64,000 nucleotides of DNA. Source: an uncultured Acidobacteriota bacterium. Its GTDB lineage: Bacteria > Acidobacteriota > Thermoanaerobaculia > Multivoradales > UBA5704. Each line of letters begins with the position of its first letter. Position 1 is the stretch's first letter. Both the position numbers and the translations under genes were made by a program. This document shows, in pieces, positions 35,822-56,100 of the stretch. The stretch covers positions 257,844-321,843 of the forward strand of contig CAVVXL010000010.1 in the NCBI GenBank assembly GCA_963752235.1, read 5' to 3'. The notes below the pieces were generated by a model, which had not been told where the DNA came from, searched no databases, and saw only the letters and a list, made by a program, of their open reading frames with translations.

Positions 35822-37345
35822 CCAGTCCCCACCTCGGCGTCGAACACCGCCGTCTGCACCTTGCCGCCGATCTTGACCTGGACCCACAGGCGGTAGCGTC
35901 CGGGTTGGGGAAACTCGTAGGGAAAGGAGAGCGTCCCCGGCCGGGCGCTCTCCCTCGTCATCTTCATTCCGGCCATCCCGGCCATGCCGTTTCCCCCGGC
36001 CCCACCCTCCTGATTTTCGAACGCCTGCTGGGCCGCCATGCTGACGGTGCCCATCGGGTGGAGGTGGACGAACACCCGGCCGTCGTCGCGGCTGATCACG
36101 GCATGGCTCGGCATTCCCATGTAGGACTCGAGCGCGGCGGGCTCGCCGTCCGCGCCGCGAACCTCGAAGCGCAAGGTGACCTCGCGGCCGGCCCGCAGCG
36201 GCTCCTGGTGCCAGAGCATCGAGCCGCCGTCCTCGAGCAGGGCAAGCTTCGGCCCGGCCGTCGAGGCCCTTCCCAGCGGCTCCGTGATCCGCAGGGAATC
36301 GTCGGGATCGACGTCCGGCGCAACGCCCTGTCCCCCCTCGGAAAAGCTCGCCGGGAGCGTCACCCGGTCCACCAGGGTCTGCGGGAAGCCGCTCTCGTGG
36401 ACGACGTCGGCGTAGACGCGGTAGGAGCCCGCCGGCAGCGGCGGCAAGGAGACCTGGAAACGGTCCGCCCCTTCGGCCACCGGATGGAGATGGGCGAAGG
36501 CGTCGAGGCCGGGCTCGCGCAGCAGGAACAGGTGCATCAGCTTGCCGTGATCGGGGATCAGCGGCGTCCAGTCGTGGCGGCGCGGATCGTCGATCGTCAG
36601 GGTGAGCACGGGCCGGCCACCGGCGAGGCCGACCGCGGCGTGGGTGCGGAACGGCTTGAACAGGCTCGACTGCGCCTCGCCGTCCACCTGGTCCCACCAT
36701 CTCTTGCCACCCCAGAGAGCGGCGGCGAAGAGGAGGGTGGCGAGGACGACGACGACGCGCGCCCGCCGCCGGCGCCGGTCGTCCACCGTCGCGGTGACCG
36801 GCAACGCCCCCTCGCGCACGGCGGCGCCGACGATCGAGACCGCCCCGGCGAACAGGAACAACCCCAGGCCGGCCAGGATCAGTCGGAGGCCGCGGTCCAT
36901 CCCCAGCACGCGGCTCGGCTCGGCGAGGACCGGCACCTGCGCCACCCCGTCTCCCGCCGGCCCCTGGATATGGACCCGCACGCTGTAGGAGGAGGCGACC
37001 ATCAGCCAGAGCTCGCCGCTCCAGGTCCCCGGCGCGCCCGGGACGGGCACGGCGACGTCCGGCGGCGGAGCGCCCCGGAGCCCCGCCTGGAACTGGACCG
37101 GCTGCACGGTGACCTTCAGACGCTGGTCCGCCGGGTACCCCTCGCGCAGCCGCACCGTGATCTCCGCGAGGCCCGGAACCACCACCGGCGGACGGATGAT
37201 GACCCGTACCGGATACGGCCCGGCGTTGCCGTCGTAGAAGACGTTGGGGCTGCCGACGTGCGCCCTGGCGGGGACCGCCGCCGTCGAGCAGGGCCAGGAG
37301 GAGAACGGAGACGGCAGCGCCCCTCCTCATCCTCATCGCTCTCAT
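35818..37345 (-). CDS. exported/membrane-anchored beta-rich protein, apparent frameshift in the signal-peptide region
   Basis: ATG 37345..37343 (MRAMRMRRGAAVSVLLLALL, a good signal peptide) overlaps the upstream stop as ATGA, but after about 25 codons the convincing protein (…ARAHVGSPNVFYDGNAGPYPVRVIIRPPVVVPGLAEITVRL…, track ORF 35818..37185) continues in another frame. The shift lies near the C4/G3 run at about 37266..37285. Two central TM helices and a C-terminal beta domain (HLHPV, GRYRLWVQVKIGG). Confidence 0.4.
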
Positions 37346-38443
37346 CGCTGCACCTTCGCCATCCACTCTCCCCACCAGAGGCCGAGGCGGGTCGAGGCGA
37401 TCGCCCACAGCAGCGCGATGCCGAAGCGCGCGAGCGTCATCGGGTCCTCTTTCCGCATCCAGAACTGGTGATGGAACGCCCCGGGGCGGGAGAAGTAGGC
37501 CCAGAAGCGGTCCCCCGCGAAGAACCAGTTGTCGGCCGCGGGAGAGAGCTGAAAGTCGGCGAAGAACCAGTGGACCGTGAAGAAGACGACCAGGAACGCC
37601 GTTCCGATCGCCGCCGCGTCCCGCCAGCCGGCGCGCTTCTCTTCTCCCCGGGACCGCGCGCTGGAGCAGGAGGTCGATCGCCAGCGCCGGAATCACCAGG
37701 AGCAGCGGGAAGAGCGGCGGCGCCATGTGGTCGACCGGCAGGTTGATCGGTCCGAGCCTGGGATGGGCCGGGAAGAGCGGCAGGATCCAGACCATGAGGA
37801 GCTTGAGCAGCATGTAAAAGGCCGCCGTGATCGTGGCCGCCCAGCGCAGACGCGACGAGCGCGCCACGGCGACCAGCAGGAGCGGGAGGACGGCCGCCAT
37901 CAGCTCATAGAAGAGGCCGCCGTGCCGGCGGTTCGGCTCGCTGTACTCGAGCAGGAGGCCGGTGATCATCGTCACCACGATCCCGGCCGCGTACAGATGA
38001 GCGAGCCCGAGCTTGCGCACCTCCCCGGCGGGCGCGCGGTTCTGGGCGGACAGCGCGAGCAGCATGGCGCCGAGCTCGATGGTGATCATGCCGGCGCCGA
38101 GCAGACTGTGCGGCGGCGAGAGCACCTTGACGTCGAGGCCATAGGCGGCGTGCCACCAGTTGTCGAACGGCGCCGAGGTGAGCATGGCGATGGCGCCCCA
38201 GATCGCCACCCAGGCGCCGAGCGGCGCGCGGAACCCCCAGAAACGGACCGCCCGCCCGCGTTCCGCCGCGCTGCCGCCGAAGGTGGTGCCGAGCGCCAGG
38301 GCGCCGCACGAGATCCCCGCCAGCACCCCGCCGAGGTAGATCGCCATGTGGGCCGGCGTCCAGAAGGTGTCGCGGCCGATCGTCATGTGCCAGGAGATGT
38401 CCCAGAGCAGGCCGACGATGATGCTGGTCGACCCGGCGAGCAT
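37342..38443 (-). CDS. polytopic membrane protein (8 or more TM), apparent frameshift near 37640..37660
   Basis: N-terminal 265 aa in the frame of track ORF 33461..38443 (MLAGSTSIIVGLLWDISWH...LLQRAVPG). C-terminal 100 aa (...EEKRAGWRDAAAIGTAFLVVFFTVHWFF...GEWMAKVQR*) continue in the adjacent frame after the CCCGGGG run. Stop at 37342. Confidence 0.4.
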
Positions 38444-53135: not shown

Positions 53136-56100
53136 CTAGGCGGATTTTCCCAGATAGGCCTTGAGGCGCGGCGCCACGCTGCGGCGCACCAGGGCGCTCT
53201 GCGCCTGCCAGCGGGCAGCCGCGTCGAGCTCGACCAGGAAGCTGGGCTCGCGCCCCTCGAGGACGGCGATGGGCAGGCCGTCGCGGTAGAGGAGGCGGTT
53301 GCCGGCGAGGGCGGGGAGGCGGTCGCCGGCGCTCGCGATGCCGACCAGGTTCAGCGGATCGACGGCGCTCACCGACACCAGGGTCCCCTTGCGGGGCTGC
53401 TTGCGCAGCGCGCGGAGCTGCCCCACCGCTTCGGTCAGGGCGTACTGCTCCCCCGAGAAGCCGTCGACGAAGCGGCCGCCGCGGATCTCGCCCCGCGCCT
53501 CCAGCCGGCGGAAGACCTGGAGCAGGTCGCGCCAGGGGGGGAGCAGCGTCTCCCGTTCGAGCAGCTTGCGGAAGACCACCCCATAGCGCCGCAGCAGCGT
53601 CCAGGCGGCGCTCTCGGTGGCCTCCCGCGACGGCAAGGCCGGAGAAGCACCCGGTGCCGCGACGGATTCCGGGTGGAGCAGCGACCAGCGGCCGGCGTTC
53701 TCCATGCCGAAGAGGGAGATCCCGCCGCCGCGCCGCCCGCCGCGGTCGACCGGCGGGCGCTTGTGGGCGGGGGTGAGCAGGGCGCGCAGGCCGGTGAAGC
53801 TGTCCGAGGTGACGAGCCCCCAGGCGACCAGCTCGCCGAGCGCCATCTCGAGCTGGGTGTGGAGGAGCCCCGCGCCGTGCGCGATCTCGCCGAAGAAGCA
53901 GGCGCCGCGGCCCCGCAGCACGTCGTAGGCGGCGCGGGCTCCCGCCGACAGCTCGAGCGCCGCGGCATCGGCCGGCGGCGCGATCTCCCGCCAGAGGGGA
54001 AGGGCGCCGCGCGAGAGGAGCGCCAGGGGGGTCGCCCGCACCGGACCGGAACGCCGCGCGCCGTCGGCAGTGGGGGCCGTGCCGCGCCCCCAGACCCAAC
54101 GGCCGGCGAGGCACAGGGCATCCAGCCACGACGGGTCGTACTCCTTCATCCGCGCCGGCAGGATCTCCCCCTCCCAGGCGGACGCCGCCGCCTCGAACCC
54201 TTCGAGCTGGGCGAGCAGGGGGTCGAGGCTCCCCGGCCCCTCGGCCCGTCCGTCGGGATCGACCCGCTGCCAGGCGAGGAGGAAGCGCAGGAAATCAACC
54301 TGGGGGACCGGCTCGATCTCGCGCCGCAGCCGGTCGAGGGTGTAGCGATGGACGCGGGCGAGGAGCCGCCGCTCGCACCATTCCTCCCCGGGAGCTCCCG
54401 GCGTCCCGGGCGTGAACCGGCCGCGGAAGACGAACCCCTCCCCTTCGAGCGCCGCGAGAGCGCTCTCGACGGCGCCGCGTCCGACCCCCAGGCTGGCGGC
54501 GAGCCCCTCGGCGGTGACCGGCCCCAGCCCGTCGAGCCGGCCGCGCACCAGCTCGCGGAGCGCTTCCTCGGGGGTCCACTCGCGGGCGAGCCGGGGGGGC
54601 GCGGCGATCTCCGGCTCCAGCCGGGCTTGCCGGTGGAGCGCCTGGAGCTGCGGCAACCGCTCGGCCGCGATCCAGACGCGCGGCCCGTCCGCGGGGAGGC
54701 TCGCGAGCGTCGCCCGGCGGGCCTTCGCCAGCGCGTCGAAGAGCCGCTCCCAGCCCGAGCGGTCCCCCTCCTCGACGGTGACGAAGCCGAGGGTCAGCAG
54801 GGCGTCGTGCAGCTCGTCGGGGGTCTCGGCGTCGGGCCATGCCTCGGCGCGGACGCGGGCGATCGCCTCGGCGTCGAGCGCGCCGAGGTCGGCCGCGGTC
54901 TCGGGATCGAGCCAGCGGCGCAGGGCCACCGCCTGGGTCCGCCGCTCCTCGAGCGGCGCATCGTCGAGGAAGGCGTAGGGCTGGGCCTTCAAGATCTCGT
55001 GCGCCAGCGGCGACGGCTCGACCACGTCGCGGGCGAGCATCCGCACCTCTCCCGCCTCCATCCGCCGCAGGAGCCGCTCCAGCCCCTCGACGTCCATCGC
55101 CTCTTCCAGGCAGTCGCGCAGGGTCTGCTCGATCAGCGGATGGTCGGGGACCTCGCGCTCCCCCACGATGTTCTCGAGGCAGGCGAGCTGGTCGGGGAAG
55201 ACGACCGCCACCAGGTCCTCGGCCGCCTGCCGCAGCAGCGGCGCCGGTACCCGGCGCCCGCCGCGCTGGCGGGGGATGGCGAGCGCCCGGCCGGCGTTCC
55301 AGCGCCAGCGCACGCCGAACAGGGGAGCGTCGAGCACCGCCTGGGTGAGGACGTCGCGCGCCGTGCTCGAGCTCAGGAAGTGGAAGACGTCCTCGAGCGG
55401 GAAGCTGTGGGTGGGGCCGAGGGAGAGCACGATGGCGTCCTCGGTCGCCGCCGCCTGCAGCTCGAAATTGAAGGCGCGGCAGAAGCGCTTGCGCAGGGCG
55501 AGCCCCCAGGCGCGGTTCAGCCGGCTGCCGAACGGCGCGTGGAGGACCAGGTGCTGGTCCCCCGCCTCGTCGAAGAAGCGCTCGGCCACCAGGGTGTCCT
55601 GCGAGGGCATCGCCCCCAGCGCCAGCGCCGCCGCGGCCAGGTAGTCGACGACCTGGGACGACGCCGCGGCGTCGAGCCCCAGCTCGTCCTCCAGCCAGGC
55701 CGCCGCCGCGGCCCGCGACCCTTCGGTCCACCCGCCGCGTGATCTCCTCGCGCAGCCGCGAGACGGCGACCGACAGCTCCGCCGTCCGCGCCGGCGCCTC
55801 GCCCAGCCAGAAGGGGATGTTGGGCGGCTGCCCCTTGGCGTCCTCGACCAGCACCCGCCCCTGCTCGACCTTGATGATGCGCCAGGAGGCGTTGCCGAGC
55901 TGGAAGACGTCCCCCGCCAGGCTCTCGACGGCGAAGTCCTCGTGCACCGTGCCGATCGTGGTGCCGGCGGGCTGGAGGACTACCTGATAGTCGGCGAGGT
56001 CGGGGATGGCGCCCCCGGCGGTCATCGCGGTCAGCCGCGCCCCCTTGCGCGGGCGCAGCACGCCGTTCACGGCGTCCTGGTGCAGGTAGGCTCCGCGCCG

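Follow-up and report, generated by a model that had tools for sequence, protein, structure and literature searches.

Clusters of bacterial pseudogenes formed by reductive decay are established, for instance in Mycobacterium leprae and in recent host-restricted pathogens. Compensated frameshifts in functional genes are likewise an established phenomenon. Genes fragmented by indels have also been documented in long-read metagenome-assembled genomes (MAGs) below about 40x coverage, together with the IDEEL test for full-length proteins (PMC9262707). The Microflora Danica MAGs are Nanopore-only and were produced with Flye and one round of Medaka (PMC12313526). The stretch of DNA analysed here (the window, 64 kb of contig CAVVXL010000010.1 in assembly GCA_963752235.1, from an uncultured Thermoanaerobaculia-like acidobacterium) carries small indels in seven genes between 37.3 and 55.7 kb. 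These lesions exist and are unique to the sequence of the window. They are probably consensus errors in the deposited assembly, which we infer to be a long-read metagenome assembly, and the organism itself very probably carries unbroken versions of all seven genes. As biology, the frameshifts are ordinary.

The broken genes are the following:

35821..37345, minus strand: gene A, an exported protein (about 490-505 aa in relatives)
37345..38521, minus strand: gene B, a polytopic membrane protein (388-391 aa in relatives), with two lesions
38565..39738, plus strand: Fe-dependent alcohol dehydrogenase, Fe-ADH (381-391 aa in relatives)
42003..43350, minus strand: gene F, a secreted protein (449 aa in relatives)
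44206..45201, plus strand: gene H (328-353 aa in relatives), broken twice; the open reading frame (ORF) of the window is complete, with 332 aa
45211..49505, minus strand: TopoIII-RecQ fusion gene (one ORF in close relatives, 1401-1446 aa)
53139..57522, minus strand: Lhr helicase (1462-1464 aa in relatives)

An earlier note, made from the letters of the window, had listed seven genes that need a frame change to give a sensible protein. This list was borne out by a Viterbi analysis of reading frames, by split Pfam domains, by alignments to PDB sequences and by four relatives in which the genes are intact. The G+C content of the window is about 70%, which opens long frames in all six frames and makes ORF length alone useless as a guide. 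A six-frame Viterbi procedure was therefore run on a codon-usage model trained on long ORFs of the window; one training ORF (27374-29194) was off-frame, and the Viterbi outcome was independently matched by the proteins of relatives. Relatives were found via the joined Lhr (products 96% identical) and via cluster members of other window proteins. Four of them were used for DNA comparison, namely R1 (JGI Ga0604918_0000015), R2 (JGI Ga0604947_0000008), R3 (ENA ERZ25039594 contig_29309) and R4 (JGI Ga0494384_0001972), plus one Logan contig. The four are independent assemblies of one species-level group and, with the Logan contig, span the window from 9.1 to 64 kb at a DNA identity of 87-98%. The first 9.1 kb, without a close relative for comparison, was judged by the order of Pfam domains only. 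In a scan of GTDB genomes with RecQ, the best among the matches listed was 73% identical and lay on a 3.8-kb contig.

Frame switches on the same strand and without a gene boundary were located by Viterbi at about 37.26-37.35, 37.64, 39.47, 43.26, 44.44-44.46, 44.70, 47.24-47.47 and 55.70 kb, and no convincing switch was seen elsewhere in the window. In the relatives all seven genes are intact (A with 489-505 aa, the others at the lengths given above), as is Fe-ADH in the Logan contig, and at none of the sites is a lesion shared with any of the four relatives. Mapping the R1 proteins back to the window broke exactly seven genes, and the confinement of the frameshifts to about 37-56 kb proposed in the earlier note thus stands. 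So does its description of the flanking genes as clean: compared with the proteins of relatives, all genes in 9.1-35.8 and 57.5-64 kb are single-frame, full-length and stop-free. No coding indel of a length other than a multiple of three was found in these flanks, the remaining indels of such lengths between window and relatives being all intergenic. In 0-9.1 kb the Pfam domains are complete and in order (GNAT, glutamate dehydrogenase, MscS, tricorn, serine hydrolase, RRM). Within the cluster, where seven of twelve adjacent genes are disrupted, the following are intact:

39741..41438, minus strand: DUF885 gene, with a product identical to P0250 from the window's source contig
41511-41972: DUF6526
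43416-44189: DUF455
49805-50353: DUF1572
50632..53115, plus strand: PAS-GGDEF-EAL gene, 828 aa

The lesions amount to nine to ten small indels in 37.3-55.7 kb, comprising six single extra bases, one insertion of two bases at a G7C3 tract, one net loss of one base in a linker and one garbled stretch of 11 nt:

37284..37286, minus strand: lesion A, +1 nt; window CTGCTCGACGG, relatives CTGCTGGCGG or CTGATGGCGG
37654..37660, minus strand: lesion B, +1 nt; window CAGCGCGCGG, relatives CAACGGCGG, CAAAGGCGG or CAGAGACGG
38498..38508, minus strand: lesion Bn, garbled, net +3 through three extra bases, plus 2-3 substitutions
39472..39474, plus strand: lesion C in Fe-ADH, +1 nt; window GCGCTACGAACC, relatives GCGCTCGAACC (L114) and GCGCTACAACT (L115)
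43257..43260, minus strand: lesion F, +1 nt; window GGTCCCTCTCCC, relatives GGTCCCCTCCC (L115) and GGTCCTCTCCC (L116)
44500..44509, plus strand: lesion H1, +2 nt (equivalent to -1) at G7C3; window CATCGAGGGGGGGCCCGCGC, relatives for example CATCGGGGCGGGCCCCGCGC
44711, plus strand: lesion H2, +1 nt, a G within a C run; window GGTCCGCCAGAG, relatives GGTCCCCAGAG
47435..47462, minus strand: lesion I in the fusion gene, net -1 (equivalent to +2), in a Pro/Gly-rich linker of variable length
55725..55727, minus strand: lesion J in Lhr, +1 nt; window GTGGACCGAAGG, relatives GTGGGCGAAGG (L111) and GTAGACGAGGG (L112)

Their density is highest between 37.3 and 47.5 kb, the Lhr lesion lying 8 kb beyond. 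With 54.9 kb checked, nine lesions would by chance all lie inside 18.4 kb with a probability of about 1e-3, and eight of the nine inside 10.2 kb with one of about 4e-4. The earlier note had placed the shifts correctly in A, B, F, H (both) and Lhr. Its position for Fe-ADH (39485-39500) was about 12 nt away from the actual one (39472-39474), and the shift that it put in RecQ at GGGGG 47246-47250 lies about 200 nt away, in the linker at about 47435-47462.

In gene A, the signal peptide (MRAMRMRRGAAVSVLLLALL...) and the body (ARAHVGSPNVFYDG...) are in different frames, and in the body frame only residues 24-504 align to the protein of relatives. The extra base is either C 37286 or A 37284; it adjoins a substitution and lies outside the CCCC run at 37270-37273. 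Gene B requires two frames plus one stop when compared with the protein of relatives. Its frameshift occurs in a CG repeat (CGCGCG) and not in the CCCGGGG run at 37646-37652. The second lesion of B, at the start of the gene, was absent from the earlier note and was found here. It puts a TAG into the frame of B at codon 7 (38501-38503), so that the product would end after MESVAP where relatives have MESVVR(T/A)(S/P)VVE. The extra bases align against relatives as parts of 1, 1 and 1 or of 2 and 1, within a hypervariable segment, and the stretch looks like a garbled consensus when read from its sequence. No Pfam or NCBIfam family was found for A or for B. The protein of A has a hydrophobic segment in its interior. 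The two genes are neighbours in the window (35821-38521, minus strand), and their pairing is conserved, occurring also in a Pseudacidobacterium MAG (L012 1-2100). There B is single-frame and is followed by A, with MKW...ALPARA/HVGSP in one frame.

In Fe-ADH, the ADH_Fe_C profile is matched from position 2 to 104 in one frame and from 108 to 190 in the next. Joined at VVRY/NLPACADRL, the protein aligns without gaps to PDB 8zrl and 3bfj. The window has TACGAAC where relatives have TCGAAC or TACAAC, the extra base being at 39472 or 39474 and outside any homopolymer, and the string of the window is the union of the two alleles found in relatives. Gene F, to which no family was assigned, has its signal peptide MNRNILPARLALALALTFLSATVAAAQ in one frame and its body (PLPAPLPLFPADNWWN...) in another, only residues 31-449 aligning in the body frame. 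In short form its lesion reads CCCTCTCCC in the window and CCCCTCCC or CCTCTCCC in relatives, again the union of two relatives' alleles; the corrected protein has 449 aa and is stop-free. In Lhr, the frame that encodes DEAD, Helicase_C and WH_Lhr is not the frame of DEAD_assoc, WH3 and WH4; once joined, the protein can be aligned without interruption to Mycobacterium smegmatis Lhr in the PDB. Its lesion, GGACCGAA versus GGGCGAA or AGACGAG in short form, is due to A 55727 or to a C of a CC pair. As for Fe-ADH, the two-frame reconstruction proposed in the earlier note is thus upheld by a PDB alignment that runs through the junction.

Gene H differs from the others by its two shifts, between which 70 codons in the middle of the ORF do not follow the frame of homologs. 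In tblastn with homologs, identity is lost in the ORF frame between AMAHRGG and WVVKAP, and the same segment is homolog-like in another frame (ISWDAPLHDLLWQLPTP...). The first shift is the only lesion on a long run; the second reads in short form TCCGCCAG in the window versus TCCCCAG. The uncorrected product of H was deposited as P0302, from the source contig. With its 70 central residues in the wrong frame, it has no fellow member in its cluster in a collection of about 15 billion proteins. Exact look-ups in the protein collection for an independent assembly of the same strain, made with the corrected H, Fe-ADH (two variants) and F, gave no match. The label ATP-grasp that the gene had received found no support, since neither the intact protein of a relative nor the corrected window protein has a match in Pfam, NCBIfam or PDB sequences.

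The gene described earlier as RecQ is the C-terminal half of a TopoIII-RecQ fusion. In the window, Toprim and Topoisom_bac are in frame -2 down to about 47460, and DEAD, Helicase_C, RecQ_Zn_bind and HRDC are in frame -0 from about 47435. In relatives the same domains follow one another in one stop-free ORF of 1362-1585 aa. In the RecQ frame of the window, no start codon for a separate full-length RecQ was found upstream of the FRPYQ motif. The lesion cannot be pinned to one base: the interval contains several C4-C5 runs, and against L116 the alignment falls into parts of -9, +1, -1 and -1. From sequence comparison, TopoIII and RecQ form a natural fused ORF in the lineage of the window and beyond. 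Among 22 loci with this arrangement, the fusion is one stop-free ORF in 19, its halves being joined by a variable Pro/Gly-rich linker (for example L111 18022-22227, L082 6839-11056, L084 6974-11059, L086 6314-11068 and L001 1-3759). The loci come from Thermoanaerobaculia, Bryobacterales, Solibacteraceae, Terriglobia, Polyangiaceae and Oligoflexus. No account of a natural bacterial TopoIII-RecQ fusion was found in a literature search. The three loci with frame changes or stops (L003, L009 and L032) are all from Nanopore-only Microflora Danica MAGs, in two other loci of which (L006 and L027) the fusion is intact. This suggests that the broken loci are cases of the same kind of assembly error elsewhere.

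Among the explanations considered, an error of the assembly is favoured, though not in its homopolymer form. Most lesions are a single inserted base unlike its neighbours. Of the six single-base insertions with a clean placement, five directly adjoin a base that is variable among relatives, against a background of 0.20 (P about 0.002). Together with the allele unions at Fe-ADH and F, this fits the consensus of collapsed strains and may be taken as a hint at the cause. Reads of at least two co-occurring strains about 5% apart, or reads of a low-coverage stretch, would have been collapsed during long-read assembly and polishing; at sites where the strains differ, the consensus would then keep the bases of both alleles and thereby gain one extra base. 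The functionally unrelated nature of the genes hit and the spatial clustering of the lesions fit a local assembly problem. The context supports a long-read MAG origin of the window without proving it: circumstantially, the ENA assembly behind R3 (L116) names its contigs in the contig_N style, and Nanopore-only Microflora Danica MAGs of related taxa are present in ENA. The three broken fusion loci of such MAGs, and the frameshifted or truncated proteins P0251 and P0301 of another ENA contig of the species, belong to the same context.

Several observations weigh against a consensus error. The lesions are present in the public record itself (P0302), and hence did not arise in the cutting of the window. 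Most of them are inserted bases away from homopolymers, unlike the residual error regarded as classic for Nanopore, a run-length deletion. Substitutions are no more frequent in the cluster than elsewhere, so that a simple low-coverage explanation needs an error process specific to indels. A haplotype-mosaic test gave no signal, the switching between R1-like and R2-like positions being 0.415 in the cluster and 0.35-0.41 outside. The sharp limits at about 37.2 and 55.8 kb are left without explanation. Finally, both multi-lesion cases sum to +3, a sum that would arise by chance in roughly one case out of 6 to 9 and that compensation through selection would also predict.

The main rival view is that the mutations are real and very recent, produced by a local burst of small insertions (e.g. 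through error-prone repair) or belonging to a population with just-inactivated genes. The lesions do stand in the deposited sequence, most are unlike the homopolymer miscalls expected of sequencing error, the two shifts of H restore the frame and leave a complete ORF of 332 aa, and the N-terminal lesion of B nets +3. Nevertheless, the same B lesion places a stop at codon 7, and the scrambled 70 codons of H are still homolog-like in the other frame. Real mutation would also require nine to ten independent indels in seven unrelated genes over 18 kb, with the 36 kb of flanking coding DNA that was checked staying free of them, a distribution for which a local consensus problem accounts far better. 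All four relatives are intact, and the lack of a non-synonymous excess, even downstream of the lesions, would make every event extremely recent. Real mutations are therefore judged unlikely. Their most specific form, a kataegis-like indel shower over about 10-18 kb in a wild Thermoanaerobaculia strain, in which error-prone repair or recombination would have freshly knocked out seven genes, is more doubtful still.

The earlier note had attributed the shifts, in one of its two alternatives, to homopolymer indel errors, and had stated that every shift coincides with a short C or G run. Neither claim was borne out. Of the six pinned single-base insertions, four (A, B, Fe-ADH and H2) lengthen no run, and a run is clearly involved only at 44500-44509, with possible involvement at the linker 47435-47462, in F and in Lhr. 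C/G runs of at least 4 occur 10.5 times per kb in the window, and a random 20-nt interval of this 70% G+C sequence touches a C/G run of at least 3 with a probability of 0.58. With C/G runs everywhere, a short run near any site is expected by chance. Long runs are not hot spots, since nine of the ten 7-base C/G runs are free of lesions, including three inside the cluster (47886, 53535 and 54593). Length miscalls at C/G runs, due to low coverage or to long-read chemistry, would account for the lesion on G7C3 and for the linker lesion amid C4-C5 runs, and the lesions of F and Lhr may each be a stretch of C grown by one base (CC to CCC and C to CC, respectively). As the cause of the whole cluster, however, they are very unlikely, most insertions being outside runs. 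A motif shared by the lesions (CGA, at four of them) was also considered and was dismissed as unremarkable at 70% G+C and as leaving the confinement unexplained.

The second alternative of the earlier note, a genuinely decaying region, was contradicted by the pattern of substitutions. Substitutions were counted as specific to the window where it differs at positions on which two relatives agree, and were sorted by codon position in the frame defined by homologs. They amount to 18.1 per kb inside the cluster (66% at codon position 3) and to 18.4 per kb outside (64% at codon position 3). Even in the 9.4 kb located downstream of lesions, a portion that real lesions would leave untranslated, the values are 19.4 per kb and 69% at the third position (chi-square versus the clean region, p = 0.15). 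Identity to relatives in 2-kb steps, taken as a test for generally poor sequence, shows no drop in the cluster. Purifying selection on the affected genes is normal. Since it is so downstream of the lesions as well, old decay is excluded, and any real event would have to be extremely recent. Removal of one or two bases yields full-length, stop-free proteins for A, Fe-ADH, F, H and Lhr. Long-standing decay, whether as old pseudogenes or as a redundant duplicate under relaxed selection, has in its favour that seven of twelve adjacent genes are disrupted; with the substitution rate and codon-position spectrum of intact genes, no nonsense codons in the corrected frames and lesions that occur in no relative, it is hardly credible.

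Programmed ribosomal frameshifting, transcriptional slippage or phase variation can practically be dismissed, because, apart from the G7 run as a possible slippage tract at one site, no motif is common to the sites in these seven unrelated genes, and relatives have single-frame genes without slippery sequences at the corresponding places.

A number of differences between the window and its relatives were observed besides the lesions. The synteny with R1 and R2 is broken at window positions 1-9105, in place of which the relatives have radical-SAM, hypothetical and DNA-ligase genes. Two small genes that follow exoIII in R1 and R2 are absent from the window (11155-11233). In R1, a nonribosomal peptide synthetase (NRPS) gene and an aminotransferase gene are inserted between tyrosinase and TamB (L117 15085-19764). 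Between gene H and DUF455, R1 and R2 have a PIN-domain gene and a small upstream gene (L114 6549-7212 and L115 6537-7227), likely a toxin-antitoxin pair; the pair is absent from the window (44189-44206), and R3 has only a 66-aa ORF there. The sensor kinase of R3 has 873 aa versus 847-851 aa in the other relatives, owing to a 1-nt indel (L116 20460-20565) 17 codons before the stop, relative to the window (30880-30931), R1 and R2. The agreement of the window with R1 and R2 at this place assigns the oddity to R3 and not to the window. A further ENA assembly of the same species-level group (contig of 72,635 nt) contains a frameshifted DUF885 protein (P0251, 603 aa with an unrelated C-terminal tail) and P0301, a 209-aa fragment of a 723-aa GGDEF protein.

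For annotation, the seven genes are to be read as intact, and functional calls made from the deposited ORFs are unsafe, for example when Lhr is called truncated, RecQ is called separate or P0302 is taken as a product of 332 aa. If the lesions are indeed consensus errors, frameshift errors in metagenomes can lie outside homopolymers, cluster locally and fall at strain-variable positions, which is of relevance to polishing and to pseudogene counts in MAG catalogues. If they were real, they would be the record of a localized burst of indel mutation in an uncultured bacterium.

Compared with known systems, gene H resembles compensated frameshifts in that its shifts, 200 nt apart, restore the frame and keep the ORF intact, but the segment between them still matches homologs in the other frame and has not evolved into a new peptide. 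The cluster as a whole shares with pseudogene clusters several adjacent frameshifted genes and one premature stop. In contrast with those clusters, there is neither relaxed selection nor a pile-up of non-synonymous and nonsense changes, and no lesion is common to relatives. From the indel fragmentation of Nanopore MAGs it differs by lesions that are mostly insertions outside homopolymers and beside strain-variable bases, and that are confined to about 18 kb of the 64-kb window instead of being evenly spread. As in such MAGs, indels of 1-2 nt split genes that are intact in close relatives, the surrounding sequence is normal, and the TopoIII-RecQ family affected here is also broken in three Nanopore MAG loci.

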